A DNA stretch of 64,000 bases, taken from sequence record NC_041871.1, one strand, 5' to 3'. The position numbers were made by a program, and so were the translations under genes. The notes beneath the pieces are model-generated. The model made no database searches and was not told where the DNA came from. It was given only the letters and a program-made list of their open reading frames with translations. This DNA comes from Escherichia phage Murica. Numbering within the stretch: position 1 is the first letter of the stretch; each line of letters starts with the position of its first letter. Positions 1 to 13,761 of this stretch are shown in pieces.

Positions 1-1983
1 TTATTTGGTGTTATTCTTTGCGTCGATCAGTTCACGGTATTCAATCATAGCAGGAGTGTCCCAATATTTCAAGCCCACATGCTTCAAAAGTGGATATTTC
101 TTTTCCAATCTTGCAATATAGGCCTTCCCGCACTTGACTCGGTTGGCGATTAAGATTTTGGCACGATGATTTAGCTCACTGTGCTTCCACGCGGTGTTAC
201 CTTCCCACTTGTGGAAATGTGGCCGATAATTTCCAAAATCTTGCATGGGGATAATTTTCCCTAATTGTCTATACAGGCTGTCATATGAAGTTTCATTTGC
301 TGCGCGAGTCAGTAAGAATTTCCAGGCGTCCTCTTTCAACAAATGTTCCACATTTTTCTCTGTAACATACTGGCAATCAGGATCAGTCCAAAGCAGACGA
401 GATTCTGATACCAGGTACAGATCTTCCCCTTCAGGAATCTGGAGTGCCGCACGCACACGGTCATAATTTTGCTGGTAGATGTTACTTAGCTGTCCCAGCC
501 AACAACTTCCACGTTGGATATCACCCTCATAAGGAATGCAGTGCTTAATCTTCTTGAACTCTGCCTTAGTAATACGTTCACGACGGAAGTAACCATCCTT
601 CTCAAGCTTTTTAACCCAATAACCTGGCTCGTAATGAGTTTTTGTTTCACCTTTCTTCGCAGGTCGGCGAGGGAGCTCTGATAACAATTTGACAGTATCT
701 GCAAAGAACGGATGGTGTGCCGCCTCTTTAAACTCTTTCACCAGATCCGTGTTCCGGCAATAGAAAACGTTGCGTCCGGTGATTTCGCTTAAGTAGTTAC
801 ACTTATTTCGGTTATATTTACCATCTCCGTCGTTAAATACAAGGTATACACCTCGTAAGAACTCCGACTTTCCGTAACGAGCATAGCCTATGCGGCCTTT
901 ATTTAAGCCGCCAGCGAAAATTTCACAATCGCCTAAGTCGCCAAGCCCTGTTTCTTCCCAACGGTTCCACATAAAGTTTTTGCCGAAGATGTGTCCGAAC
1001 ACTCCACTATTCTTCATCATTTCACGTGCTTCTGCGGAGGTTTTTGCCGTCTCCAGTTCTGCAATAACTTCTGCCCCGCGAAGACGTATACCTTCTTTGA
1101 CAAAGGCCTCCAGGCGATCCTGGAATCCACCGTCGTCATGGCCCTCTATGGTCCATTCACGCCCAGGGTTAATATTGCAATCCCCAATAGGAATTTCCAC
1201 GCAGATTGCAGGGTAATCGGTCAATGTCTCCAGGAACTTGGAGCGGTAAGGTTGGTGACCCATCACAACACGGCTCTCATCAGAACTGGTATAACCTTTC
1301 AGGATGGTCATTTTCCAGCCATCCTTCTCGTAATGATACTGTGCCTCAACCTTGTCACCTTCTAACATCTTACTGGTCATAGGATCGGTGACGATGAACG
1401 GAAACTTCGCATAGCGTAAGCACGATGCAATAGCAGTGCGATATTTCAGGACATGCTCTTTCTTAACATGGAACTGAACTTTTACCCCGTTGTGCTCTTC
1501 AGTCTTCCGCTCACGGATCTTGGTAACGTTTGGGATACCCTGATCCAAGAACAATAGATATGTGCTTTCAACACCATTGTGCACACTGATAACATCGAAA
1601 GTGTCCACCATACTGAACGGAGCCTTTGAACCAACACCTTTATTACCTACCAGAGCGTTGCTGTTGCGCTTGGTTGACTCCCCGAGATTCATGAAAGTGT
1701 TGCGGACCATCTCTTCTGACATGCCCAATCCAACGTCCTGCACAAAGAAGTATGGTTCAAGGTCTGTAGGAGAGTGAATGATGATCGGTACATCACCCCG
1801 TCCAGACTCAACATGGGAGTCCACAGCATTGAAGATTGGTTCACGGCAGCTTGCCAGCACCTTATCTTCGTAAATCCCTTTAATGATTAGCCCAAAAGTC
1901 TCTTTGTTCAGAGAAATTGAGCCCCTGGTGACCTCCATATTTCCGGTCAGCACTGCTTTAGTTTCATTACTGTTTACAATCAT
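1..1983 (-). CDS. GHKL-superfamily (Bergerat-fold) ATPase domain protein, 660 aa, large C-terminal region unassigned
   Basis: N-terminal 150 aa carries N-box (REPIFNAVDS), G1 box (VQDVGLGM) and G2 box (GNKGVGSKAPF) in canonical order and spacing. Start overlaps stop of the adjacent SleB-like gene (ATGA). TAA stop at 1-3, so the ORF is complete. Confidence 0.55.
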   Translation of the reverse strand: MIVNSNETKAVLTGNMEVTRGSISLNKETFGLIIKGIYEDKVLASCREPIFNAVDSHVESGRGDVPIIIHSPTDLEPYFFVQDVGLGMSEEMVRNTFMNLGESTKRNSNALVGNKGVGSKAPFSMVDTFDVISVHNGVESTYLLFLDQGIPNVTKIRERKTEEHNGVKVQFHVKKEHVLKYRTAIASCLRYAKFPFIVTDPMTSKMLEGDKVEAQYHYEKDGWKMTILKGYTSSDESRVVMGHQPYRSKFLETLTDYPAICVEIPIGDCNINPGREWTIEGHDDGGFQDRLEAFVKEGIRLRGAEVIAELETAKTSAEAREMMKNSGVFGHIFGKNFMWNRWEETGLGDLGDCEIFAGGLNKGRIGYARYGKSEFLRGVYLVFNDGDGKYNRNKCNYLSEITGRNVFYCRNTDLVKEFKEAAHHPFFADTVKLLSELPRRPAKKGETKTHYEPGYWVKKLEKDGYFRRERITKAEFKKIKHCIPYEGDIQRGSCWLGQLSNIYQQNYDRVRAALQIPEGEDLYLVSESRLLWTDPDCQYVTEKNVEHLLKEDAWKFLLTRAANETSYDSLYRQLGKIIPMQDFGNYRPHFHKWEGNTAWKHSELNHRAKILIANRVKCGKAYIARLEKKYPLLKHVGLKYWDTPAMIEYRELIDAKNNTK

Positions 1984-2480
1984 TTATTGCGCTCCTTGTA
2001 GTAGATATGGCTCCCGAATTGAGCTGTCCTCTGCATCTTTTTTGCCCATTTCGGTCGTACTTTGGTTGTATGGTAGTGTGTTGCTCCACCTGTTATGTCC
2101 ATAGCCATGTATGCAACATGGTTGTTATTATAGACCTTTAGAAGCATCTTTGCAAGACTTTTAGCGTGATCCCATGAATCTTTTTCTGTCACCTTAAAAG
2201 TTTTGCCGTGGTTTGTCCACGAAAACTGGTTAGGTTGGTAGACAATCTTTCTTATAGTGTCTGGGTATTTAGGGTGGGATTTCCTGTTTAGTGTGGCAAA
2301 CCCAGATGCCAGCATACCCATCGTGCCATCTCCTCTAGCTTCCCTGTAGATATTGCATGCCAGAATGTTTTCCTTAGTATCTGATGGCTTGCAAGTATGA
2401 TATACTTTTTGTTTTGGTGCTGCAACAACAGGCAGCGATAAAAGTGCGCTCAAAATAATAGCAAAGATCTTAATTTTCAC
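1980..2480 (-). CDS. SleB-family cell-wall hydrolase with N-terminal signal peptide (candidate secreted endolysin)
   Basis: Motifs NIYREARGDG, LNR, QFSW and GGATHYH match the SleB/Hydrolase_2 pattern. N-terminus MKIKIFAIILSALLSLPVVAAP is signal-peptide-like. GTG start with GGAG 8 nt upstream. Confidence 0.7.
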   Translation of the reverse strand: MKIKIFAIILSALLSLPVVAAPKQKVYHTCKPSDTKENILACNIYREARGDGTMGMLASGFATLNRKSHPKYPDTIRKIVYQPNQFSWTNHGKTFKVTEKDSWDHAKSLAKMLLKVYNNNHVAYMAMDITGGATHYHTTKVRPKWAKKMQRTAQFGSHIYYKERNK

Positions 2481-2500
2481 AATGACTCCAAATAGAAAAT

Positions 2501-2516
2501 CCCCGCCGAAGCGGGG
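2501..2516 (-). terminator. hairpin CCCCGC-CGAA-GCGGGG, minus-strand terminator or attenuator 20 nt upstream of the SleB-like start
   Basis: Perfect 6-bp GC stem with a 4-nt loop, followed on the minus strand by ATTTTCTATTT. The same 16-mer recurs at 28932-28947. Confidence 0.5.
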
Positions 2517-2529
2517 GAGGTCTTAGAAA

Positions 2530-2910
2530 TTAATCGTAGTGTGCCAAAATCTCTCCATCGTTGCAAGTTCCCTCTACAAAGTTATGAAGATTCATGCACT
2601 CATCTTGATAGAAGAATTTACCGCTTTTCAGCCGTAGGCCAAACAACTCCGCATCTCCACGATGGCAAGCCTCTACAAGTTCATAGATTTCATACGGCAA
2701 CTCTCCGTCGTCATGGAAGAATCCAGCCTTATCGTTGACATAAATGAAGAAATAATCACTGCTATCGCAAGCGTCCAATATTTTAAACCAGACTTCATCT
2801 ACATCTTTTTCTCGGATATCGATCACGCAAGTGGAGCTGCATTCGTACTCCTTCTCCGGCTCCTCGGTCAATACCACCAGGTAGTTTCCCCGCTTACCTA
2901 CTTTAGCCAT
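2530..2910 (-). CDS. hypothetical protein (start trimmed to MAKVGKRG)
   Basis: ORF 2530-2958 in track. The ATG at 2908-2910 has a strong SD (AAGGGGGG) and lies 10 nt after the stop of the AAA+ gene; the longer start would overlap that gene. Confidence 0.45.
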   Translation of the reverse strand: MAKVGKRGNYLVVLTEEPEKEYECSSTCVIDIREKDVDEVWFKILDACDSSDYFFIYVNDKAGFFHDDGELPYEIYELVEACHRGDAELFGLRLKSGKFFYQDECMNLHNFVEGTCNDGEILAHYD

Positions 2911-2920
2911 ACAACCCCCC

Positions 2921-4105
2921 TTAAGCTTTAGCCAAAATGGCGCTAAACTCTTCACCAAACTCTTTTACAATCTTCATCAGGTTTGGGTATGCTTTGATCA
3001 GCTGAGCAACAATCTTGTCACGCCCTTTACCGATAAGCAAGGCATTTCCTAAGGCATTAGGTTTCATCATCGCCATAAAGACTGAGAATACAAAATCTCG
3101 GTTCTCGTCCTTGAAGTTTTCCCAAAGGAAATCGAGGAAGTTTGCCACGCAGCTGACAAGATCTTCGTCTGAGATACTTGCATTTTCCATCATATTGCGA
3201 ATAGCGATACAACCTTCAGATCCAAGAATCCACAAAATGTCTGGCTGCTTAGGACCTACGTATTCTTTGCAGCCACCTGCCATAATCCGACCGATTTCCG
3301 GTAAATTACGTTTCTTGGTGTGGTAAGTCCAGATCTCTACCGCTGCAGTGTGACCAATAGCACCTTGTAGAAGAACACGGGCCATAGCGTCAGAAATAAT
3401 ACCGCTGTCAAAATCGTGCAAGATGTCAGATGCAGCAACCCAAGATCGTGGTGTGGCAAAAGATGGACAATTAATCTCAGCCATAGCCTCATAATTATCA
3501 ATAGCTGATGGAACTCTTTTCAGATACCCAATTACAGAGGAGTGAACCCCGTTGAGGAATGCGTAGTCCTCAATAAACACCTCTGCATTGCTTGTAACCT
3601 CTACAATGATAAAACGGTTAGCCAGAGGGGCTTCGAGCGCCGAAAGAACCGCACCATCTGTAGAACGGTTACCCGCAGCCACAAAAACAGAACCCTTAGG
3701 GAATGCATAGGTGCCGCACTTGTGGTCAAGCATAATTTGCATTGCAACCTTTTGCAGGTAGTTATCTGCATGAGTGAGCTCATCCAGAAAGATAATTCCG
3801 CTCCAGTCAGGATCCGCAGGCCAAAATTCTGGAATTGCAAACACTGTACGTGTAGTTCCATCCGCTTCTACAGGGATAGGTAGCCCAGATAAGTCGGCAG
3901 GATCTTTATCTGACAGTCGCACGTCAACAAGGTTGTCATCTCGCTCACCGAACATATTATCAGCGATCTGCTTCATCACCTGGCTTTTACCCACACCCAT
4001 TGGTCCCAAAATTAGGACAGATCGGCTATGACGTTGGGCAAACTGAATAATAGCTGGCAACTCACGGACAGTGATTTGACCACTTTCGAATACGTTTCTT
4101 GACAT
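2921..4105 (-). CDS. AAA+ ATPase, MoxR/CbbQ/CobS-like (AAA_5-type)
   Basis: Walker A GPMGVGKS, Walker B IIFLDEL, sensor-1-like VAAGN. 394 aa. Confidence 0.7.
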   Translation of the reverse strand: MSRNVFESGQITVRELPAIIQFAQRHSRSVLILGPMGVGKSQVMKQIADNMFGERDDNLVDVRLSDKDPADLSGLPIPVEADGTTRTVFAIPEFWPADPDWSGIIFLDELTHADNYLQKVAMQIMLDHKCGTYAFPKGSVFVAAGNRSTDGAVLSALEAPLANRFIIVEVTSNAEVFIEDYAFLNGVHSSVIGYLKRVPSAIDNYEAMAEINCPSFATPRSWVAASDILHDFDSGIISDAMARVLLQGAIGHTAAVEIWTYHTKKRNLPEIGRIMAGGCKEYVGPKQPDILWILGSEGCIAIRNMMENASISDEDLVSCVANFLDFLWENFKDENRDFVFSVFMAMMKPNALGNALLIGKGRDKIVAQLIKAYPNLMKIVKEFGEEFSAILAKA

Positions 4106-4374
4106 TAGTAAAAGTCCTCTACTTGTGTGTAAGTGTTTTCAAAGTTTTCCAAAACAGATATCACATCGAATCTGTCAATATCATACGTGACTCTCCAGTT
4201 GTACGCAACCCTTTCTGCTGTTGCCTCTTCTGGCGCTAGTCGTCTGCTGGCATAAAAGAGTGTTGGAGTACACTTTCTTGCTTGCCCTCTAACTTTCCCA
4301 TAATAATATCTGTGAATATCTTTGTCAAAATTTAACTCTTTTTCTGCACGAAGTTCATATTGCTGGTATAACAT
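4105..4374 (-). CDS. hypothetical protein, 89 aa
   Basis: ORF in operon context; start overlaps the upstream stop (translational coupling). Confidence 0.4.
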   Translation of the reverse strand: MLYQQYELRAEKELNFDKDIHRYYYGKVRGQARKCTPTLFYASRRLAPEEATAERVAYNWRVTYDIDRFDVISVLENFENTYTQVEDFY

Positions 4375-4418
4375 CTCTACTACTCCTTAAGCAGCATCCT
4401 TGCCGCCATTCCTGCCCA

Positions 4419-4799
4419 CTAAAATGCAGTCCGAATCCAGACAAGGTTCTTATCTGCCCAATCATAGAGGCAAGTCATTGCACTATTGAATTGCTCACAC
4501 GGAGGATAATCTTCTTCCATCTGGCGCATAGCAGAGCCTTGTGGGTAAAGCTCCCGTGCTGCAAACCACGCGTCGTAGTCATCAACGGTGTCGAAGTAGT
4601 ATACAACATCCTCTAACTCAGGATCGAACTTTGAACTATCAGGATCCAGTTGTTCAGGGAACTTGGAGCGTAACTTGCCAGCCACAATACTTGCCAACTC
4701 GCTAACATGCTTATTGTCCCACTCCACTAGCTTCCCGTCTTCAGTGATGCGTCCTAACCACTGATCATGAAGGTCAACTGTTGTCTTCCACTGAGCCAT
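4419..4799 (-). CDS. hypothetical acidic protein, 126 aa
   Basis: ORF in a compact early operon; D/E-rich composition. Confidence 0.45.
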   Translation of the reverse strand: MAQWKTTVDLHDQWLGRITEDGKLVEWDNKHVSELASIVAGKLRSKFPEQLDPDSSKFDPELEDVVYYFDTVDDYDAWFAARELYPQGSAMRQMEEDYPPCEQFNSAMTCLYDWADKNLVWIRTAF

Positions 4800-4801
4800 T
4801 A

Positions 4802-5059
4802 TCAGTCCACCTCTTCTTCTCGTTGTAGTTCAAGATACCCGTAGGTCTGGACATCTTGAAGGGTGTGGAACTCCCCCTCTGCCGCTAAGGCACGAACAAC
4901 TTGGCACAAAACCTTATGAGGAACTTCATCCAAACCTAGATTCAGTGCAGGAAACACCTTATCTAAGTCAACAAAATAAACGAACTGTAGCTCACCAGCT
5001 TCAAAAGGTGTATCTTCAATAAACATCTTCTCGGCATTAGTCAAGATCTGCACTTTCAT
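4802..5059 (-). CDS. hypothetical acidic protein, 85 aa
   Basis: ORF, tightly packed; acidic C-terminus (QREEEVD). Confidence 0.4.
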   Translation of the reverse strand: MKVQILTNAEKMFIEDTPFEAGELQFVYFVDLDKVFPALNLGLDEVPHKVLCQVVRALAAEGEFHTLQDVQTYGYLELQREEEVD

Positions 5060-5415
5060 TATTCTACCTCCTCTTCTTTTTCTTCGGCATTAGTTTCATG
5101 GCTACCCCACTCGGGAGTTTCCACCTCGATAGTAAACTCACGCACTACACGGTAATTGCCCATGAAGCGCTCTACTTCGTCAAGGCTTATGGAGAGGCCA
5201 TTGGCAACCAGGTCTGCAGCACCCTCTTCTACCAGGTAGTCCAGATTGGCTTCCAGAGCCTCAGGTTCAAACCCTGTCAATGCAATCAGATAACCTTCCC
5301 CTTCATCAGGGAGGACAATACAGCCCAATTGATTTTCTTTAAAAAGGCAGTGACCATCATTATTGATTGGGTGTTCATTGCAGTAAATAGCTGCACGATA
5401 AGTAACTTTAGACAT
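5059..5415 (-). CDS. hypothetical highly acidic protein (start trimmed to MSKVTYRA)
   Basis: Track ORF 5059-5436. ATG at 5413-5415 has GGAG 9 nt upstream and sits inside the 29-bp repeat. Strongly E/D-rich with a poly-Glu C-terminus. Confidence 0.45.
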   Translation of the reverse strand: MSKVTYRAAIYCNEHPINNDGHCLFKENQLGCIVLPDEGEGYLIALTGFEPEALEANLDYLVEEGAADLVANGLSISLDEVERFMGNYRVVREFTIEVETPEWGSHETNAEEKEEEVE

Positions 5416-5420
5416 CGGTA
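5392..5420 (-). repeat. 29-bp exact repeat, copy A (inverted relative to copy B at 7254-7282), spans the start codon
   Basis: Reverse complement of 5392-5420 equals 7254-7282 (TACCGATGTCTAAAGTTACTTATCGTGCA). Confidence 0.9.
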
Positions 5421-5428
5421 AGGTCTCC

Positions 5429-5707
5429 TTAGGCAATTGTCATTTTACATTCTTGAAATTTTAACACAAGACGGTGATTGTGTCTAGTGTCTAAAAAGAT
5501 TTTTTCAACCATCAGGCACACGGTATAACCGTCCATCTTGTTGACAACAAAATCTCCAGGATGAGGGAGGATGTCTCCCGGATTGGGGAAACATAGTCCA
5601 CTCAGAAAGGCATCGTCAGTGGTGGACTTAATAGATTTCCACACACTGTCTGCCTGAACATGTTCACCGACGTAATATACATTACCACATGCCTTCATCA
5701 TAGTCAA
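5429..5707 (-). CDS. hypothetical protein, 92 aa
   Basis: ORF in operon context. Confidence 0.4.
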   Translation of the reverse strand: MTMMKACGNVYYVGEHVQADSVWKSIKSTTDDAFLSGLCFPNPGDILPHPGDFVVNKMDGYTVCLMVEKIFLDTRHNHRLVLKFQECKMTIA

Positions 5708-6603
5708 ACCCTCGCATAAATTAAACTTGTATCAGTATACTTCTTTAATGGGTAAATATCCTGTCCATAGATGCAATCATTAAACACCTCATCTACCCAA
5801 AGGCTACACTTATATCCCATCATTTCTAAAACACCCATCTCTTCTTCGGTAAACTTATCACCGCTCTTGCAAGATGTCAATACCTCATTCTGAACTCTTG
5901 CTACCTCGAAGCGGTTATTGGCAATATCGCTATTGGCGATCAAATACTCACCTAGAGGGTGTGCGGCATTAAAGATGCACAGTGGACGGCTGACGTAATA
6001 GTCTCCAGGTGTATAAAAATTGTTGAGGTCTTTCACTAGAACATTCTTATCAGTCACTTCATTTATAACATCATGCATATCGCACATCTTTATATGTTTG
6101 AGGATTCCATCCCCCATCACAAAATAAAAACTTGCTGAGACACTTTCGGCATAGATCTTACTAGATCCGTTGTAGTTGTATTTTACTCGGATGCTAACGG
6201 GGGTTTTTCCTGTCGCGTTAGCCATCATCCAAAGAAATGGCAGCTCATACTTCTCCTCTGAGGAAACAAAAGGTGAGGTAGCCAGAGATCGAAAACCTCC
6301 AGAGAAGTTGAAAGTTACAGAACCGCTCCGGCGGTATGATACCGCGTATTCTACTTTTATATCGACATACCCATTGGAATAGGTGTGTCCTTCATTATCT
6401 AAATATGTCCACTTATCAGACCCAGATACCAATCTACGCTCAATAACCTTCATCACTATAGGAATTAATGGGTTGGTACAAACCGCTTTTGAAGTAGCTT
6501 TATCATCTAAAGCCTCGTAAATTGCAGAAAGGATGTCCCCAGCTGAAAGATTGGTTGTTATGTCCTGTTTCCACCGCGTACTAAAACTGTTAAGATTTGC
6601 CAT
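5704..6603 (-). CDS. hypothetical protein, 299 aa (first gene of the minus-strand accessory operon)
   Basis: ATG at 6601-6603 preceded by AGGAG; sits directly downstream of the minus-strand promoter. Confidence 0.5.
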   Translation of the reverse strand: MANLNSFSTRWKQDITTNLSAGDILSAIYEALDDKATSKAVCTNPLIPIVMKVIERRLVSGSDKWTYLDNEGHTYSNGYVDIKVEYAVSYRRSGSVTFNFSGGFRSLATSPFVSSEEKYELPFLWMMANATGKTPVSIRVKYNYNGSSKIYAESVSASFYFVMGDGILKHIKMCDMHDVINEVTDKNVLVKDLNNFYTPGDYYVSRPLCIFNAAHPLGEYLIANSDIANNRFEVARVQNEVLTSCKSGDKFTEEEMGVLEMMGYKCSLWVDEVFNDCIYGQDIYPLKKYTDTSLIYARV

Positions 6604-6643
6604 AAGTAAGTGCTCCTATGTTAGTTTTCTTTCGAATGGGTGC

Positions 6644-6672
6644 ACTATATTGTGGAGTTAGAGTAAAGTCAA
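6644..6672 (-). promoter_or_regulatory. sigma70-like promoter, TTGACT-N17-TATAGT, minus strand
   Basis: -35 is reverse complement of 6667-6672, -10 is reverse complement of 6644-6649, 17-nt spacer; about 40 nt upstream of the 6603 start. Confidence 0.55.
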
Positions 6673-6685
6673 CACGTTTTTGATG

Positions 6686-6714
6686 TTGACATCTGTTGAG
6701 ACAATTGATACGAT
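6686..6714 (+). promoter_or_regulatory. sigma70-like promoter, TTGACA-N17-TACGAT with TG extended -10, plus strand
   Basis: TTGACA at 6686-6691, 17-nt spacer, TACGAT at 6709-6714 preceded by TGA; upstream of ATG 6746. Confidence 0.5.
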
Positions 6715-6745
6715 TTCTTCACTTACAGAGCACGAGAGACGACTC

Positions 6746-7723
6746 ATGAATCTTGAAAAATATTATACACCAGAAGAGTTAGAGCGCTTGCTCAAAAAAT
6801 ATAGACGCAAACAGAATAACGCACGGAAACGAGATATAGAGTTCGACCTGTCATGGGAAGAATACCTCCTATTTGGTAAAAAACTTTTAGGAGATGGAGT
6901 ATGCGACTATACCCTTATACCTTTTGACATGCACACAGATGAAAACGGGCTGGGGAATCCTTTCTACCCATCCCTGGAGCGGATAGATGATGAAGGTCCT
7001 TATGCGGTTGATAACTGTTGTGTGGTGGGATTGAGATGCAACTCTCTAAAGGACTGTCTGGTAGATAAAAAGACTGCAGTCTTGATTAAAGACGAAACTG
7101 ATCGAAAAATTGTCCAGCAGATGATGCTCCACCTGAGCGAAGAGCGTATGGAGAAATTGAAAGGTGATTATACTTTTGAAGATTTCATCTTGCAATATGG
7201 AACGGAAGAGGATAAACTAGCACTCTTTGACGAAGAAGAGGAGGAAGATATGCTACCGATGTCTAAAGTTACTTATCGTGCACCCAAGAAGCACATTTCC
7301 GACATTGTAAACGAGCCTATCACAGAAGAGATTGAAGAAATGACGCAACAGGTGCATGAAGAGGAAAAAGAGACTCAGGAGGTCGAAGAGGAGCTTACAG
7401 AAGAGGTTCCTGCACTACCTGATGATGTTGAGATTGCCAAAGCTTACACTTTCTATTGTCAAACGTTCTACGATGTAGGTATGAAAGTTGATCTGTCGTT
7501 CAGCCAATTTAAGAGTTCGTATATTCGCAAATGCTGTGCTTTAACTGGTGAACGTCTTGGAGCTGGACTTAAACCCCTGTTGGTGACCGACTGGAATAAA
7601 GGTTTCACTAAAGGAAACTTTATGGTAGTATCTCCAATTATGGAGAAAGCTATGACAGATCTTATGAAGACCACCCGCATGACAATGACCGAGTTGGCAG
7701 GTATTTTCAAACACGTTAAATAA
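6746..7723 (+). CDS. hypothetical protein with an internally duplicated Cys-containing domain and an acidic linker
   Basis: Track ORF starts at TTG 6680 inside the promoter; re-called to ATG 6746 (GAGAG upstream). Both halves share the pattern D-x-x-F/L-x-x-S ... G-x-Y ... N-x-x-V. Contains copy B of the 29-bp repeat internally (…MLPMSKVTYRAP…). Confidence 0.5.
   Translation: MNLEKYYTPEELERLLKKYRRKQNNARKRDIEFDLSWEEYLLFGKKLLGDGVCDYTLIPFDMHTDENGLGNPFYPSLERIDDEGPYAVDNCCVVGLRCNSLKDCLVDKKTAVLIKDETDRKIVQQMMLHLSEERMEKLKGDYTFEDFILQYGTEEDKLALFDEEEEEDMLPMSKVTYRAPKKHISDIVNEPITEEIEEMTQQVHEEEKETQEVEEELTEEVPALPDDVEIAKAYTFYCQTFYDVGMKVDLSFSQFKSSYIRKCCALTGERLGAGLKPLLVTDWNKGFTKGNFMVVSPIMEKAMTDLMKTTRMTMTELAGIFKHVK
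7254..7282 (+). repeat. 29-bp exact repeat, copy B
   Basis: Identical to the reverse complement of 5392-5420; encodes the same peptide MSKVTYRA. Confidence 0.9.
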
Positions 7724-7727
7724 TGAC

Positions 7728-7744
7728 AGGGGCCAATGGCCCCT
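7728..7744 (+). promoter_or_regulatory. intergenic hairpin AGGGGCC-AAT-GGCCCCT
   Basis: Perfect 7-bp stem immediately after the TAA at 7721-7723 and before the RBS (GGAG) of the next gene. Confidence 0.4.
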
Positions 7745-7756
7745 TCTGGAGTTTTA

Positions 7757-9217
7757 ATGGATAGCAGAAGTTCAGAAATCATTGCCTCTCAGAAAGATGA
7801 TGCCCTGAGAATGTTGCAGGCTGCACGTATGTATCTCCTTGAAAAGCTGCCGTTTTATGGCACACTACTGTCAGGGTTGCAGTTCGTAGAAAACCACACA
7901 TGGTGCTCCACCATGGCAACCGACCATAAACGCATCTATTACAGTCCTGAGTTCATTATGGGATTGGCTGATGAACGCAAGGCTATTCTTAAGGCTTCTC
8001 TAACTGACGAGCAGTTTGAGATGGCTGAAGTTTTCTATTCCCCAAAATCTGTGAAAGAGGTGGCCTTCCTTCTGTCACATGAGGTGGGGCATATTATCTG
8101 TGATCACCTAGTCCGTGGTAAAAGCTTTGAGCCGGAACTGTTCAATATTGCTTGTGATCACGTTATCAACACAGGCCTTGTGGTTGACTTTAGCAAACCT
8201 CCTTGTGTTTTCTTCCCGAAGGGGAAAAGCACTACGTTCATGAAAGGTAAGCCTTTTGGCTTCTTAGCCAGCTGCTACTGCGACATGAAGTTTCATGGAT
8301 GGATTGCTGAGAACGTTTATGCAGTTCTTGATAAGCAAAGAGATCAGAATAACGGTAAAAGTAAGAACGGTAAAGGTGAGAACTCTCAAAGCGATAAGCG
8401 ACAAACCGATGATCACATGAGTGGGAACGGTGGCACCAGTGATAATCTTGGAAAGGCTATGGGGTATGATCAGCCACAACCTGTAATCAGCCAATCTGAT
8501 AAAGATCAGGCCATGCAGGACTCTGGTGATATGCTGGAGGCAGCAATGCAAGCGTCCGGAGGCCGTTGCCCTGAGGCGGTGCGTGAGTTTGTCAAGAACA
8601 GAGGTAAGCCTGTAATCAACTATATAGACATCATTAAGCAACGTATGTTGTCTAAAAGAAAGGCCGAACTGACCTACAGAAAACCTGGTCGCCGATCTGG
8701 GTCTTTGACCAGCACAATGCGAAAAGTTGGGGCTATAAACAAGAACCAGCACGTTATTGTTCCTGGTCGTAATCCGGAAAACACTATAGATATTGTGGTG
8801 GCTTTAGACGTTTCTGGCTCGATCTCTCAAAGAACTTTAAAGAAAATGTTCAATGAAATCACCGGATTGTGCAATCTGTATAAAGAGTTTAAGGTTACAA
8901 TGTTCTGTTGGTCAACTGAGGTTGGAGAGGTTAAAGTATACACTCGCGGCAACATAGACGAGATGGTCAACTATGAGGTCCACTCAACATGGGGCACAAC
9001 AGCTGCTTGCGTGTTCGAGTATCTGGATGCCAACATACCTAATGCAAAAGATGTCATCGTCCTGACCGACCTATACTTTGAGCATAACTTTGAACAAAAG
9101 GTTGTTGACAACAAGTGGAAAAAGTACGATACTCTATGGGTCCTCACTAAGGGGTATAATAAAAATTATATCCCGAGCTTTGGGAAAACTGTGGAATTAA
9201 TCGAGTACGCTAAGTAA
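7757..9217 (+). CDS. vWA-domain protein with N-terminal HExxH metallopeptidase-like domain (DUF2201-like, usual partner of MoxR ATPases)
   Basis: HExxH in LLSHEVGHIICDHL; MIDAS-like DxSxS in VALDVSGSIS. Start re-called from 7736 (inside the hairpin) to ATG 7757. Confidence 0.6.
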   Translation: MDSRSSEIIASQKDDALRMLQAARMYLLEKLPFYGTLLSGLQFVENHTWCSTMATDHKRIYYSPEFIMGLADERKAILKASLTDEQFEMAEVFYSPKSVKEVAFLLSHEVGHIICDHLVRGKSFEPELFNIACDHVINTGLVVDFSKPPCVFFPKGKSTTFMKGKPFGFLASCYCDMKFHGWIAENVYAVLDKQRDQNNGKSKNGKGENSQSDKRQTDDHMSGNGGTSDNLGKAMGYDQPQPVISQSDKDQAMQDSGDMLEAAMQASGGRCPEAVREFVKNRGKPVINYIDIIKQRMLSKRKAELTYRKPGRRSGSLTSTMRKVGAINKNQHVIVPGRNPENTIDIVVALDVSGSISQRTLKKMFNEITGLCNLYKEFKVTMFCWSTEVGEVKVYTRGNIDEMVNYEVHSTWGTTAACVFEYLDANIPNAKDVIVLTDLYFEHNFEQKVVDNKWKKYDTLWVLTKGYNKNYIPSFGKTVELIEYAK

Positions 9218-9232
9218 GAGAGGAGGTTATTT

Positions 9233-9496
9233 ATGGCAACAGAGTTAAAATTTGCATCAAACCGTAAAACTAAGAAGTATCTGTCCTCAGTAGCTCCAGG
9301 CACTGTGGTGATGTTTGTTGATGAACTTGGGGATGTGAATACAGCACTTGTTGTAAAATCACATCCTGCAAACATATATGTTGGGGTATTTGACCTGTTC
9401 AGAAAGGTGTTTGTAGAACTGCCTCACAGTTTGGTTGTTACAGAAATGGATGCCTGCATAGAAATTCTTGGCGAAGTTATGGTGGAGGAACAATAA
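9233..9496 (+). CDS. small protein, tandem paralog 1 of 4 (87 aa)
   Basis: AGGAGG RBS; shares MAT…K…GTVV…V.K…FDL…LP…VTE.D..I.ILGE with paralog 2. Confidence 0.5.
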   Translation: MATELKFASNRKTKKYLSSVAPGTVVMFVDELGDVNTALVVKSHPANIYVGVFDLFRKVFVELPHSLVVTEMDACIEILGEVMVEEQ

Positions 9497-9759
9497 TGGC
9501 TACCAGCATTGTATTCAATTCTAAGGTGAAGAACAAAAAGCGTGCAGACAGTTTTCCGTGTGGGACCGTGGTAAGTTGCGACGGAGACGGCATTCAAAAC
9601 ATAGTTATGATTGTCAAAACAGGAGAACATTGTGTGTGGGGGTTCGATTTAGAAAATAATGAGTTGTACGATCTGCCGCCAAACATGAAAGTTACAGAGC
9701 TTGACACCAAAATTACCATCCTTGGAGAGACAAGCTATTCAAAAGAAGGAGGAGAATAA
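9496..9759 (+). CDS. small protein, tandem paralog 2 of 4 (87 aa)
   Basis: Start overlaps the upstream stop; alignable to paralogs 1 and 3. Confidence 0.5.
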   Translation: MATSIVFNSKVKNKKRADSFPCGTVVSCDGDGIQNIVMIVKTGEHCVWGFDLENNELYDLPPNMKVTELDTKITILGETSYSKEGGE

Positions 9760-10022
9760 TGACCACAAAAATCACTATCGCAGAACCGAAAGCTAACACT
9801 CAGCCTATCGAAAAGTTTAAGTGCGGTGAGGTGGTAACATTCACACCAGATAATGAAGATGCTAAGATTTTCGCAATGGTCACAGCTGAGTGGATGTGTG
9901 ACAACACCACACAGGTTCTGCGTTTTGACACCTATCTTACCGATGAAATCAGGAACGACAAGATTGTGACTGGTGTGGATACTGAGATTGTTTTCTACAA
10001 GAGCTTTTTAGAGGGTTTCTGA
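9759..10022 (+). CDS. small protein, tandem paralog 3 of 4 (87 aa)
   Basis: Start overlaps the upstream stop; KCGEVVTF and RFDTYL regions align with paralog 2. Confidence 0.5.
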   Translation: MTTKITIAEPKANTQPIEKFKCGEVVTFTPDNEDAKIFAMVTAEWMCDNTTQVLRFDTYLTDEIRNDKIVTGVDTEIVFYKSFLEGF

Positions 10023-10023
10023 T

Positions 10024-10257
10024 ATGGCAAAAATTAGAAAATTATCTAGCAATCAGGTTGTGAAAGACTTCGAATCTGGAGAGATTCTTTATGTTCGTGA
10101 TGCAGATGACGAAGGTGAAGATCTCGTTATGTTGGTGGGGCACGCTGAGGACGGATGCATCCAAGCTGTTTTTCTTGAAACAGCTATGGTGCACTGGATA
10201 GAGCTGGACCTGAAAGCACGAAAACCTAAAGCAGAAATCCTGATTTACGAAGATTAA
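10024..10257 (+). CDS. small protein, tandem paralog 4 of 4 (77 aa, more divergent)
   Basis: Same size class and position in the array; weaker similarity (GEILYV…LVMLVG…AVFLE). Confidence 0.4.
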   Translation: MAKIRKLSSNQVVKDFESGEILYVRDADDEGEDLVMLVGHAEDGCIQAVFLETAMVHWIELDLKARKPKAEILIYED

Positions 10258-10273
10258 CAAAAAGGAGATAGCC

Positions 10274-10723
10274 GTGTTGAGCAAACGTGAATGCGACAGC
10301 ATTAGCCTGAATTCTTATAAGAAACAATGGTTTGGGGTGGAAGTTTGCCGACTGCGGCTAGGCTCCTACCTGAACTTCGTTTATTATGAGAGTGACAGTC
10401 GTATCGTTTCTTATGAAGTGTTCTACACTAAGAACACATTCGAACTGCGCCGTAAAGTAGATGGCGGGAGAACTACCACCCAGAATAATTGGGAAACTAT
10501 TCTGCCTCCAGATGTTATAGGAAGTCCCCTGAATGTATCTGAAGATGAAAATCTTATGGTTCATGCTATGATGGGACTTGACAGCTTAGAGCTGGCAATC
10601 TATGATATGTCCATCGAAGCAGTTAAGCTGGACTACATCGAAAACACTTTAGAGGAAGGTATCAAGAAGTTTCTCAGTGAGAAATTAAAAGACCACTTTC
10701 ATAAGGAGCTATATCTGTTATGA
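10274..10723 (+). CDS. hypothetical protein, 149 aa
   Basis: GTG start with AAGGAG 8 nt upstream. Confidence 0.4.
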   Translation: MLSKRECDSISLNSYKKQWFGVEVCRLRLGSYLNFVYYESDSRIVSYEVFYTKNTFELRRKVDGGRTTTQNNWETILPPDVIGSPLNVSEDENLMVHAMMGLDSLELAIYDMSIEAVKLDYIENTLEEGIKKFLSEKLKDHFHKELYLL

Positions 10724-10965
10724 AGACCCGTAAAGAACGTAACAAAATTTTACCTGGAGCTCTCGAACACCTGATGAAGTGCAGATCTATTTGGCACTCT
10801 GCCAAGGAAGGGCAGAAGGTGGTTGTGGTTAGTGACAATACCAACCCGTTTGGAGATTATACCACCATGATGGCCCCATATGTCCGTGATGGCGTTGTAG
10901 AAGTGGTCCCTTACAACGGTTTGCATGAACGGCACTTTGAAAGCACTTTGCTAGTGGAGCTATAG
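10720..10965 (+). CDS. hypothetical protein, 81 aa
   Basis: ORF coupled to the upstream gene (ATGA overlap). Confidence 0.4.
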   Translation: MKTRKERNKILPGALEHLMKCRSIWHSAKEGQKVVVVSDNTNPFGDYTTMMAPYVRDGVVEVVPYNGLHERHFESTLLVEL

Positions 10966-10967
10966 TC

Positions 10968-11534
10968 ATGGCGGTCAATGTGGCTTACAACACAGGAAAG
11001 CTTGACAGAGACATTGGGTGTCTTGTCCTTTCAGATACAGAAGAGTATTGGGGTTATGGGTTGCTGTCAGACCCACACCCGAGCAACCTTGTATCAACAG
11101 TGCTATACCGCTACGACCCTGTGCCAACGGTACACGACAAAGACATTCACGACCTTCGGATCAAGTGTCTGGAAGATCTGCTGAACAATGGTTGCAACGA
11201 TCTGCGGGTAGCCAAGGAGAAGCTTACAAACATTCACAAAGAGGAAGTGATGAGTACCCTCAGTAAAAGATCAGTGCACAAAAAGATGATGCTGAACTTT
11301 GCAATGGGTATCTACATGGATGGGTATAAGGGAGGGGATCCGATCCTCAAGCTTCGCTGCCCGACACTGTGGGAAAGAGTGGTTGACAGTAAGGACGGTA
11401 CTGCCCTGCTCGAACTCCACACTGCAGGTTGGATTTGGCGGTATGTAGACGGATACCCTCTGTGGGCATGTGGACCTGGGGAATTTGTTGACAGACCTAG
11501 CGCGGTGGTGGACTTACTATTGCAGTTTGAATAA
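10968..11534 (+). CDS. hypothetical protein, 188 aa
   Basis: ORF in operon context. Confidence 0.45.
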   Translation: MAVNVAYNTGKLDRDIGCLVLSDTEEYWGYGLLSDPHPSNLVSTVLYRYDPVPTVHDKDIHDLRIKCLEDLLNNGCNDLRVAKEKLTNIHKEEVMSTLSKRSVHKKMMLNFAMGIYMDGYKGGDPILKLRCPTLWERVVDSKDGTALLELHTAGWIWRYVDGYPLWACGPGEFVDRPSAVVDLLLQFE

Positions 11535-11591
11535 AAAGGTGAGTTATAAGGTATTCATACACCTACCAACAATACAACAGGAGAGACTAAG

Positions 11592-11867
11592 ATGACGAAA
11601 GAAGAGGCCGACGTATTAGATTTTGCACTAGAGGCTACGCAGGAGGCTTTGGTGTTAGCTTGGAAAATGAACCAGCGTGCTGCAGAATGCAACCGCCGCA
11701 TCAATGAGATCTTGGGCATGTCTATGTATGATTTCACCATGCATGCCGGAGAGATTCCTGAATTAACTGCCGAGATGAATGATCTTGACGATAAAATTAA
11801 TATCATTCTGAAGACAGCGGAAACAACTCACCAAACCGCCCGTAAATTTATCAACGAGAAGGTGTGA
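11592..11867 (+). CDS. hypothetical protein, 91 aa
   Basis: ORF with GGAGAG RBS. Confidence 0.45.
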   Translation: MTKEEADVLDFALEATQEALVLAWKMNQRAAECNRRINEILGMSMYDFTMHAGEIPELTAEMNDLDDKINIILKTAETTHQTARKFINEKV

Positions 11868-12334
11868 ATATGGACTACAGCTACTGCGGGGAAGAAGTCC
11901 CTTTTAATTACAGCAATCTTACCACGAGCAATCCATATGAGACTCGCCACGGCACGCACATCATTGCCATCGACTTTGATGGAACGTTTAATGCGAGCCC
12001 TTTCATCTTCTCCCGCCTGATCAGGGATCTGAAGAAGGAGGGGTGGACAGTCTACCTTGTGACTTTCCGATTCATTACTCAAGACAATGTAGACATTGAG
12101 TATTGGCGCAAGGAGCTCGATGTTGGTGTGTTCTACACAGGTGGTGTTCAGAAGGCAGCCTACCTGGCGCAGTTTGATATCTACCCAGATATCTGGATTG
12201 ATGATTCTCCGGCATGTATTCCGGCTAAGAATCAGTTAGAGTTTGCAATGAAGGAGATTGAGTATAAGTCTGAGGCTAAGCGGAACGGATGGCCCTTTAT
12301 TATTGAAGATTACCCAGATCCTGAACCGGAGTAA
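11864..12334 (+). CDS. HAD-superfamily phosphatase (candidate nucleotidase)
   Basis: HAD motif I IIAIDFDGT (DxDxT) and motif IV IWIDDS. Confidence 0.55.
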   Translation: MNMDYSYCGEEVPFNYSNLTTSNPYETRHGTHIIAIDFDGTFNASPFIFSRLIRDLKKEGWTVYLVTFRFITQDNVDIEYWRKELDVGVFYTGGVQKAAYLAQFDIYPDIWIDDSPACIPAKNQLEFAMKEIEYKSEAKRNGWPFIIEDYPDPEPE

Positions 12335-12339
12335 GAGCC

Positions 12340-12510
12340 ATGAGGCGAAGATATCATTACCTGATGTGGAAGTTATATCAAAATGCTGCCAAAGCCTATC
12401 ATACCATGTTTGGCAATGACGATCACTACATCATGTTACATCTCACCGCTATTGAGCATCACAATGAGTGGATTCATGCAATCGTGGCAGGTGATAAAGA
12501 CTTTAAGTAA
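12340..12510 (+). CDS. small hypothetical protein, 56 aa, not in the supplied ORF track
   Basis: ATG 12340 with GGAG 8 nt upstream, open to TAA at 12508-12510; translated by hand as MRRRYHYLMWKLYQNAAKAYHTMFGNDDHYIMLHLTAIEHHNEWIHAIVAGDKDFK. Confidence 0.3.
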   Translation: MRRRYHYLMWKLYQNAAKAYHTMFGNDDHYIMLHLTAIEHHNEWIHAIVAGDKDFK

Positions 12511-12560
12511 AGTATACCTCAAAAACGTATAGTGCGGCTTTCTAGACGGAGACTGATTAA

Positions 12561-12941
12561 ATGTGCAAGTGTAAATCCTATAATTGGAAAGTGAAAGGTG
12601 CCAAGCATCCAAGTGTTATCGTTGATGTGCCTAAAAATCTTCGTGACGGCAAAAAACGTGTGTGCCTTGATAAGTGTATGGCTAAGCCTATCATGAGTTT
12701 GTGGGCAGCAGGTTTGAAAACGCTAAACTGCTGCTGTGGTCATAACAAAGATATTCCAAGCATCATTATCCCAGAAGATGCAGATCCTAAAGCTTATGCC
12801 AAAATACTGACCCGCTATCCCAGCACCTTCCTGATCGGAAAATGGTGTCACGATGAACTCCAATGGTGGATAGCCTATGGTAGTATAGGCACTACTTTTG
12901 GCTTCCCAGCTTTGTCAGAGCGCTATGTCAAAGTGTCATAA
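12561..12941 (+). CDS. hypothetical Cys-rich protein, 126 aa
   Basis: ORF with multiple Cys clusters (CKCK, CLDKC, CCCGH). Confidence 0.45.
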   Translation: MCKCKSYNWKVKGAKHPSVIVDVPKNLRDGKKRVCLDKCMAKPIMSLWAAGLKTLNCCCGHNKDIPSIIIPEDADPKAYAKILTRYPSTFLIGKWCHDELQWWIAYGSIGTTFGFPALSERYVKVS

Positions 12942-12950
12942 TAGAATTTA

Positions 12951-12968
12951 AGGCCTCAAACGAGGCCT
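12951..12968 (+). terminator. hairpin AGGCCTC-AAAC-GAGGCCT after the 12561-12941 gene
   Basis: Perfect 7-bp stem; the downstream T-tract is weak. Confidence 0.35.
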
Positions 12969-13045
12969 GTGCCTTCATAAATTTCTCCACCCTGTGCGAT
13001 TGCCTTCCTGAATAAAATACCCTCTCAGATCTCTTAAAATTAGGC

Positions 13046-13074
13046 TTGACACCACCACCAGATCTATATATAAT
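13046..13074 (+). promoter_or_regulatory. consensus sigma70 promoter TTGACA-N17-TATAAT
   Basis: TTGACA 13046-13051, exactly 17-nt spacer, TATAAT 13069-13074; RBS GAGGAG and ATG 13103 follow. Confidence 0.7.
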
Positions 13075-13102
13075 TCTCACCAACCAAACAGAGGAGATCG
13101 TC

Positions 13103-13510
13103 ATGGATAATCTTGCAGATGTAAATGTCGAAATTGTTAAACTAAAGTTCTTGGGCTTTCGAGACCCTTATTCTTTAACAGCCATACTAATGGATACTCA
13201 CTTCACACCAGGTAAAGAGTACACTGCCTTCCGTTATATTTGCGGAGATCACGAATCAGCTTACAGTGTGAATACAAACCTCGGCGAGGGATATTTCATC
13301 AGAGATATCACAGATCACTTGTGGGGTATGTGGGAGTTGGTGGAGGAAGAGAATAAATCCCTTCCTAAAGAGATTTGGGTGCACACCTTCCACACAGGTA
13401 AGTTTGGAGGTACGGAACATAAGTCTATCCACTATGATGAAGAAAGTGCCATCAAACAACAAGCTGTGCTTGGTGGATCTATAGAAAAATTTGTTAAATG
13501 CGAGGACTGA
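13103..13510 (+). CDS. hypothetical protein (start re-called to MDNLADVN)
   Basis: Track ORF starts at TTG 13046, which is the -35 hexamer; ATG 13103 has GAGGAG 6 nt upstream. Confidence 0.5.
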   Translation: MDNLADVNVEIVKLKFLGFRDPYSLTAILMDTHFTPGKEYTAFRYICGDHESAYSVNTNLGEGYFIRDITDHLWGMWELVEEENKSLPKEIWVHTFHTGKFGGTEHKSIHYDEESAIKQQAVLGGSIEKFVKCED

Positions 13511-13513
13511 GAA

Positions 13514-13714
13514 ATGGCTGATTTTTGTAAAGATTGCTCTGAAGAGTTGTTTGGCTTTGACTGCAAAGATTTGGAAGGTCTGATCACTGAGGATCAGTGG
13601 AAGGAAGGCTATGCAGCACCTGCTATTTGTGAAGGTTGTGGCTATACCTATGTTGACCATAAAGGTAAGCGCGTCAAGCCGTCTGAAGATGGGGCATGTT
13701 GGGAGTATTACTAA
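13514..13714 (+). CDS. small zinc-ribbon-like protein, 66 aa
   Basis: Two CxxC pairs (CKDC … CEGC). Confidence 0.45.
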   Translation: MADFCKDCSEELFGFDCKDLEGLITEDQWKEGYAAPAICEGCGYTYVDHKGKRVKPSEDGACWEYY

Positions 13715-13720
13715 CTATAA

Positions 13721-13748
13721 AAAGAAAGGGGCCGTTTGGCCCCTTTTT
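13721..13748. terminator. bidirectional rho-independent terminator where plus and minus transcription converge
   Basis: GGGGCC-GTTT-GGCCCC stem flanked by an A-tract upstream and a T-tract downstream. Confidence 0.7.
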
Positions 13749-13761
13749 ATTTACCCCCTTG

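Follow-up and report, generated by a model that had tools for sequence, protein, structure and literature searches.

MoxR-class AAA+ ATPases paired with vWA-domain proteins have already been described in phages and in cells. In N4-like phages, gp24 and gp25, of which the latter has a vWFA domain, count among the core middle genes and have no known function (PMC4193335). Iyer et al. (2021) described a MoxR protein paired with a vWA protein that carries an N-terminal metallopeptidase domain in group 2.2 jumbo phages, and proposed that this pair serves virion assembly (PMC7824862). The literature that we found on the phage pair holds this single functional proposal together with the N4 label, which agrees with the statement in an earlier reading of the present sequence (hereafter, the original prediction) that the phage function of such pairs is not established. 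Among cellular systems, NorQD consists of a NorQ hexamer and one NorD protein, with a finger of the vWA domain in the pore and the metal ion-dependent adhesion site, or MIDAS, as the proposed target-binding site. The authors of that work also proposed that one vWA protein plugging one hexamer is general for MoxR/VWA couples (PMC9976466, PMC13036017). Herein, we analyze a 64,000-nucleotide stretch of DNA from Escherichia phage Murica (NC_041871.1), called the window below, in which the genes for a MoxR-class ATPase and for a partner that combines an HExxH motif with a vWA domain lie apart on opposite strands.

Both open reading frames (ORFs) exist where the original prediction had placed them (Table 1), and the distance of about 3.6 kb that it gave corresponds to 3652 nucleotides (nt) between the start codon of the ATPase gene (4105) and that of the partner gene (7757). 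The intervening stretch contains six small genes in leftward orientation, a strand-switch gap of 142 nt, and a single gene that reads rightward. The leftward unit comprises eight genes over 4.1 kb, with the ATPase gene in seventh place, 2.5 kb from the promoter region that the two arms share. The partner ORF as a whole spans 7736-9217, and a GGAG ribosome-binding site stands ahead of the annotated start. Over bases 2500-9500, identity is 99.9% with the Escherichia phages rV5_ev146, CM1, and LL12 and 99.3% with EdH4, and 120 phage records match this segment at 90% identity or more. The coordinates of the window are those of the LL12 genome and start at rIIA. Judged by nucleotide identity, the phage is a well-sampled rV5-like Vequintavirus of 137 kb. 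We consider it probable that the two genes encode a two-component phage machine and that a single inversion split them.

The original prediction had labeled the ATPase AAA_5/CobS-like. Homologues and fold uphold the MoxR class, whereas the label itself proved too specific, with AAA_5 scoring below threshold and with NorQ and CbbQ as the closest structures. Against Pfam AAA_5 (PF07728), the protein reaches E=0.0075 and 16.7 bits, below the cut-off of 22, and AAA_3 (PF07726) gives no match; searches of Pfam and NCBIfam for AAA_5 and MoxR models returned sub-threshold P-loop matches only. Because the direct Pfam match fails, the MoxR assignment runs transitively through homologues at about 1e-44 and through the fold. 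A protein search with the ATPase returns thousands of relatives, and homologues at about 34% identity (E ~1e-44) carry AAA_3/AAA_5 and sometimes bpMoxR. In our ATPase alignment (A1), AAA_5 or AAA_3 is detected at E≤1e-3 in 0 of 27 long members of the Vequintavirinae type versus 15 of 15 shorter relatives. The protein also matches phrog_1297, named 'ATPase', at E=2e-110. A complete set of motifs is present, namely Walker A (G34-S41), Walker B (D108 E109), sensor 1 (N146), an arginine finger (R164), and sensor 2 (R220), and the residues G37, G39, K40, S41, D108, E109, N146, R147, N163, R164, P219, and R220 are invariant in 42 homologues.

The AlphaFold (AF2) model of the ATPase, with a predicted local distance difference test score (pLDDT) of 84, places a beta-hairpin at residues 75-90 after helix 2; its two strands, 75-81 and 84-90, follow strand 2 and precede the Walker B strand. 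A second, short hairpin lies before sensor 1 at 129-134, ahead of strand 4. The best 14 Foldseek matches of this model, at target-normalized template modeling (TM) scores of 0.57-0.65, are all to NorQ (9qh7 and 9qh6, in complex with the NorD VWA domain) or to the Rubisco activase CbbQ (6l1q, 5c3c). A single-sequence search of the PDB returned only P-loop-level matches to Clp and p97, and a profile search reached midasin AAA domains at 1e-9, which is consistent but weak. A helical C-terminal extension of about 110 residues (approximately 280-394) is absent from shorter relatives and is also found in Certrevirus-type ATPases (~410 amino acids, with 97-99% of the query aligned), where the two genes adjoin. 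On the strength of homologues, profile, and modeled fold, the protein is a divergent MoxR-class AAA+ ATPase, and homology with NorQD and CbbQO suggests that it would form a hexameric ring.

The original prediction had also described the partner as an HExxH protein with a vWA MIDAS domain, and the domain searches bear this out. DUF2201_N (PF13203) matches at E=4.4e-28 (99.1 bits versus a cut-off of 23.2) and DUF2201 (PF09967) at E=1.9e-11 (44.6 bits versus 26.4). Among 27 aligned homologues, with identity down to 22%, the MIDAS residues are invariant, as are H108 and H112 of the HExxH motif; E109 and H117 are at least 90% conserved, and one distant homologue (P0145) has HAxxH. The vWA part adopts the Rossmann-like fold expected of this domain and accounts for the matches that whole-protein fold searches return, and residues 1-190 are modeled at pLDDT >90. 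Given its Pfam family and conserved motif, the N-terminal domain is putatively zincin-like and likely a protease. Across records that include RefSeq NC_011041, NC_016071, NC_025830, NC_023717, and NC_048772, the protein is commonly annotated as 'HNH endonuclease' (following PHROG 1314) and in some as 'putative anti-sigma factor'. We found no match to an HNH family, which leaves the former label unsupported, and it looks like a propagated misannotation.

Gene neighborhoods indicate that the two proteins belong together. Loci were taken from viral contigs, 80 seeded on the partner and 80 on the ATPase. An ATPase homologue lies within 10 kb in 76 of the 80 partner-seeded loci, or 76 of 77 informative ones; of the four that lack it, three are contigs with hardly any sequence upstream, and the other is L020, which is considered below. 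When seeded on the ATPase, 68 of 80 loci have the partner immediately downstream on the same strand and two show the split rV5-type arrangement. The other 10 contigs stop no more than 1.2 kb from the ATPase, so that co-occurrence is 70/70 among informative loci. Outside the split clade, about 145 informative viral loci have the ATPase upstream of the partner on the same strand, mostly adjacent. Adjacent pairs are found in Certrevirus CR9, the jumbo phages BF17 and fHe-Yen9-04, the N4-like phages HN01, FMD5, and VCO139, and Aeromonas phage 4L372XY. Furthermore, tblastn matches both window proteins to N4-like homologues that their depositors labeled 'N4 gp24-like' and 'N4 gp25-like', and in all split-type lineages sampled, both genes are kept with every catalytic and MIDAS residue intact. 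Thus, the proposal that the window genes are the two halves of a MoxR-vWA couple is supported, with a search from either gene recovering the other at practically all informative loci. The rV5 genes belong to a phage module that has already been described, and their split is a gene-order variant rather than a new system.

A correlation between ATPase and partner identities across loci (r=0.98) was discarded as evidence of co-evolution because both proteins simply track the genome phylogeny. A scan of bacterial contigs for cellular counterparts yielded three loci only, perhaps prophages. Both informative contigs have, upstream and on the same strand, an ATPase that the A1 profile matches, and three loci are too few for anything to be said about origin.

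The split layout is confined to one clade of the Vequintavirinae. It occurs in Vequintavirus, in loci L014-L017 (61-73% identity), in Avunavirus Av-05, Seunavirus PVP-SE1, and Mydovirus Mydo, and in the Erwinia pEp_SNUABM_01 type. Every locus with both the Srd-like gene found in the window (Table 1) and the ATPase is divergent, with a gap of 3.5-5.3 kb. Within the Vequintavirinae, the adjacent collinear layout is kept by Certrevirus (CR9, L007, L031-L033, L036) and by phage A73, and L008 has four small genes between ATPase and partner. Several marine lineages have 4-9 kb between the two genes, both on one strand. Since every phage outside the split clade is collinear, parsimony makes the collinear state ancestral.

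Gene order suggests how the change came about. From left to right, L007 has a SleB-type hydrolase (minus), a divergent gap, and then a metal-dependent phosphohydrolase, the ATPase, the partner, and a gp204-like gene, all on the plus strand; the order from the divergent gap onward is the same in CR9 and A73. PVP-SE1 in the same orientation has the hydrolase, the ATPase, and the phosphohydrolase (all minus), the divergent gap, the Srd-like gene, the partner, and the gp204-like gene (plus). The change from hydrolase-phosphohydrolase-ATPase-partner to hydrolase-ATPase-phosphohydrolase-partner therefore points to a single inversion running from the promoter gap through the ATPase. It would have taken place in the ancestor of the Vequintavirus/Seunavirus/Mydovirus/Avunavirus clade, with the block from promoter region to ATPase turned around and one breakpoint between ATPase and partner. 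Both arms would retain a promoter, since the gap would have been carried along in the inverted block together with its two opposed promoters. This test succeeded only with PVP-SE1, Mydo, and CR9, by means of the phosphohydrolase marker. The small genes flanking the pair were of no use for it, given that the window shares only the SleB-type hydrolase, the ATPase, and the partner with L007 and L008. As read from gene order, the split layout appears to be a historical accident, the by-product of one inversion. The Srd-like gene leads the rightward arm in all split-type genera, between promoter and partner gene, and collinear relatives do not have it, so that it may have arrived at or after the inversion.

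Comparison with the closest systems places the locus more precisely. The N4 genes (Schitoviridae) have the same two-protein composition and are orthologous by tblastn, at 23-30% identity over most of the length. However, the N4-like pair is collinear, adjacent or nearly so, and transcribed as middle genes by phage RNA polymerase II (PMC4193335), whereas the window genes are divergent and stand behind host-type promoter candidates. The rV5-type ATPase is also longer, with 394 amino acids versus about 280-330 aligned residues in N4-like phages. The jumbo-phage pair has the same domain architecture, and both of our queries found it in BF17 and fHe-Yen9-04. The published description concerns jumbo phages only and proposes a virion-assembly role (PMC7824862), whereas the window comes from a 137-kb phage with split genes in an early context. 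NorQ/NorD and CbbQ/CbbO share only 15-21% sequence identity with the window proteins. NorD and CbbO are without a zincin domain, are much longer than the phage partner, and function in metal insertion or Rubisco activation. Cellular DUF2201_N/DUF2201 proteins (PF13203 plus PF09967, 'predicted metal-dependent peptidase') have the same Pfam architecture as the partner.

By analogy with NorQD and CbbQO, six ATPase subunits would form a ring that engages one partner molecule, while the MIDAS site of the partner would hold an acidic residue of a target protein. ATP hydrolysis might then pull, twist, or strain the flexible linker of the partner, and the target would be remodeled. Because a zincin-like domain is attached to the partner, the target is probably also cleaved, with the HExxH domain acting after remodeling. 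The motifs, the fold similarity, and the nearly exceptionless co-occurrence are direct observations, and it is by homology that we infer ring formation, binding mode, proteolysis, and target.

Several points weigh against this account. We found no experiments on any phage member of the pair, and interaction, hexamer, peptidase activity, and target are all deduced; a literature search for transcriptomic or knock-down work on Vequintavirus and the gene pair likewise returned nothing bearing on these genes. The fold match of the ATPase is moderate, with target-normalized TM scores of up to 0.67 (0.57-0.67) and query-normalized scores of 0.39-0.45, the latter being low because of the extra C-terminal helices. 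For the N-terminal domain of the partner, no convincing solved zincin was matched, since all whole-protein fold matches are to the vWA part, and the best profile hit is an M48 peptidase at E=0.7 over the HExxH helix. The early timing of the pair derives from consensus promoters only. Two loci break the pattern of proximity. In L020 (IMGVR_UViG_3300045988_163358), a partner at 45% identity has no ATPase within 10 kb, even by profile search, and in L175 (Logan SRR16894747_3803), an ATPase at 59% identity stands after tail and baseplate genes of the same strand, and 10 kb around it contain no partner. They may represent one related lineage or two, not sequenced from culture, in which the genes would be more than 10 kb apart. 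Regarding the inversion, no breakpoint sequences were identified, and the window itself is without the phosphohydrolase marker gene, although its orientation is as in PVP-SE1.

The divergent layout might instead be adaptive, in that a bidirectional control region keeps expression of the two genes coupled and stoichiometric, as the original prediction had suggested. The shared divergent promoter that it placed at 6644-6714 corresponds to two opposed candidates, each with 10 of 12 consensus positions, that stand back to back in the sole sizeable strand-switch gap; PhagePromoter predictions in phage Gotham fall at the same positions as both; and a rightward site (TTGACA-17-GATAAT/GATACT) occupies the equivalent position in PVP-SE1, Mydo, and Av-05. 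However, sigma-70-like matches across 14 kb are barely above chance (33 found versus 24.8 ± 5.3 expected). The 8-bp inverted repeat over both -35 boxes might serve a dimeric regulator as its one operator, or it may be no more than a pair of opposed TTGAC boxes. It is also true that the split has stayed stable across four genera or more, in which protein identity falls to about 44%, but a neutral inversion would be expected to persist as well where the early region is conserved. In NorQD, the relative with a solved structure, the ratio is 6:1 rather than 1:1 (PMC9976466), and a hexamer that takes a single vWA protein gives no reason to expect equimolar synthesis. Moreover, the distant seventh gene that encodes the ATPase has a conserved promoter-like site of its own at 4328-4300, where loci L014-L017 keep both hexamers (TTGACA/TATCAT) while 8 of 17 spacer bases differ. 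The 89-amino-acid ORF that hosts this site is about 50% identical in those loci, and coding constraint could explain the conservation of the hexamers too. The partner gene, for its part, is preceded by the hairpin at 7728-7744, which in a 61-nt context folds at -19.7 kcal/mol (z = -2.5) and whose candidate roles are attenuator, RNA stabilizer, or nothing. Elsewhere, the genes as a rule form collinear operons, in which expression is coupled more directly, and because the pair is 6-9 kb apart on one strand or more than 10 kb apart in other lineages, tight cis linkage is not required. Evidently, the two proteins work in trans without any need for side-by-side genes, and the split shows that they tolerate separate encoding. 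The claim of co-regulation that preserves stoichiometric expression is thus unsupported, and we regard an adaptive layout as decidedly improbable.

With regard to function, the published proposal (PMC7824862) would make the pair a chaperone for virion assembly and a processing protease, drawing an analogy to the MoxR-vWA pair of Acidianus two-tailed virus. The homologues of gp24 and gp25 in N4-like Roseobacter phages do adjoin a second structural module (PMC4193335), and the position of the ATPase in L175 is of the same kind. Yet the window and every split-type and Certrevirus genome have the genes in the early region near rIIA, the Srd-like gene, and nucleotide-metabolism genes, behind host-type promoters; N4 gp24 and gp25 are middle rather than late genes (PMC4193335); and no virion proteomics match appears in the literature found. 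Host-type early promoters, the early-region context, and the middle status of the N4 genes therefore favor action before late morphogenesis, and we hold an assembly role to be possible but doubtful. Somewhat more tentative is the idea that the pair is not an assembly chaperone at all and acts instead early in infection, as a protease powered by ATP and directed by its MIDAS, to remove or remodel one particular host protein, such as a defense or transcription factor. The partner gene of the split clade comes immediately after the Srd-like anti-sigma gene in the predicted first rightward transcript, which would fit a host-takeover module. Finally, the two genes might have become functionally independent after the split, with the ATPase serving another client and the vWA-zincin protein working alone. 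Their physical separation in the split clade, the lineages in which one gene lacks the other within 10 kb, and the gain of a lineage-specific C-terminal extension by the ATPase would all accommodate this reading. It is nonetheless very unlikely, given that every split-type lineage sampled keeps both genes with their functional residues, that Certrevirus-type ATPases with adjacent partner genes have the extension as well, and that no complete genome without one of the two partners was shown.

Table 1. Features of the split ATPase-partner locus, given as feature, position (nt of the window, or residues where stated), strand, and remarks; MIDAS and HExxH positions are partner residues.
MoxR-class AAA+ ATPase gene	2921-4105	minus	394 amino acids; rV5 'MoxR ATPase'; N4 gp24 orthologue
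Partner gene (vWA + HExxH)	7757-9217	plus	486 amino acids from annotated start; N4 gp25 orthologue
Partner N-terminal zincin-like domain			DUF2201_N; HEVGH 108-112 and H117
Partner linker	residues ~201-228		disordered; Gly/Ser/Asn/Asp-rich
Partner C-terminal vWA domain			DUF2201; MIDAS D351-x-S353-x-S355...T414...D438
Leftward sigma-70-like promoter candidate	6672-6644	minus	TTGACT-17-TATAGT, 10/12; head of eight-gene ATPase unit
Rightward sigma-70-like promoter candidate	6686-6714	plus	TTGACA-17-TACGAT, TG before -10, 10/12; ahead of Srd-like and partner genes
8-bp inverted repeat	6668-6690	no strand	GTCAACAC...GTGTTGAC; stem from terminator scan; spans both -35 hexamers
Internal sigma-70-like promoter candidate	4328-4300	minus	TTGACA-17-TATTAT, 11/12; inside 89-amino-acid ORF, ~195 nt upstream of ATPase start
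Terminator-like hairpin	2516-2501	minus	6 G-C pairs, T-rich tail; ends leftward unit one gene past ATPase
GC-rich 7-bp hairpin	7728-7744	plus	in 33-nt gap between Srd-like gene and partner gene; followed by GGAG ribosome-binding site and short T run
Srd-like context gene	6746-7723	plus	325 amino acids; annotated 'anti-sigma factor'; first rightward gene
Small context ORF	4105-4374	minus	89 amino acids; stop overlaps ATPase start (TAATG)

Two neighbors of the pair were considered as components and rejected. The product of the Srd-like gene has a long acidic middle segment and gave no match in a Pfam search; its PHROG matches are T4 Srd ('decoy of host sigma70') and endonuclease VII/HNH families. 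As the true partner of the ATPase, this 'anti-sigma factor' gene was set aside, being without an AAA motif and having only these Srd- and endonuclease-like PHROG matches. Some records, and PHROG 13164 too, misname the small ORF that overlaps the ATPase start 'MoxR ATPase' or 'ATPase'; it contains no AAA motif. Its homologues occur only in Vequintavirus-level lineages, and small ORFs in the same overlapping position in other genera show no detectable similarity to it, which led us to reject it as a conserved third component. The hairpin at the end of the leftward unit is annotated as an ARNold terminator in phage Gotham.

Further observations concern the surrounding sequence and its database records. 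Directly downstream of the partner gene, three head-to-tail ORFs of 87 amino acids each (9233-10022, plus) are weakly alike, with 33/90, 27/94, and 17/88 identical positions among them, and thus are probably a tandem paralogue array. A 12/12 match to the sigma-70 consensus promoter (TTGACA-17-TATAAT) is present at 13046-13074 (plus), where the rightward arm nears its end. At 13725-13746 (minus), a strong terminator hairpin of 9 bp closes a leftward ORF of 1878 amino acids (13762-19398). PADLOC returned no meaningful defense-system match, and an Rfam search over 1-14000 returned no RNA family. Sixteen 'Campylobacter phage' records with Campylobacter jejuni as the stated host (MG065635, MG065646, MG065647, MG065661, and MG065690 among them) match E. 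coli rV5-like phages across the region; one listed record does so at 99.6% nucleotide identity, and the 16 encode near-identical copies of both proteins. Their Campylobacter host assignment looks doubtful. In the RefSeq records of PVP-SE1 (L009) and Av-05 (L011), many early-region ORFs of 58-144 amino acids are named 'tail protein', 'baseplate wedge subunit', 'internal head protein', and 'exonuclease'. The structural names on these tiny ORFs are probably artefacts of automated PHROG-based naming.

As a finding, the split itself is ordinary and of modest interest, a footnote on gene order, although it places one inversion at the root of a clade within the Vequintavirinae and might serve as a synteny marker for that clade. 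Recognizing the rV5 genes as members of the module corrects the labels 'HNH endonuclease' and 'anti-sigma factor' as well as the sub-threshold 'AAA_5'. The pair of MoxR ATPase and vWA-zincin protein is among the most widely conserved phage gene pairs of unknown function, being core in N4-like phages and present too in jumbo, marine, Aeromonas, and rV5-like phages. If the pair should prove to be a host-directed protease, then N4-like, rV5-like, Certrevirus, Plateaulakevirus, and jumbo phages would share one conserved machine. The phages rV5, N4, and EdH4 are genetically tractable E. coli phages in which the function of the pair can be tested.

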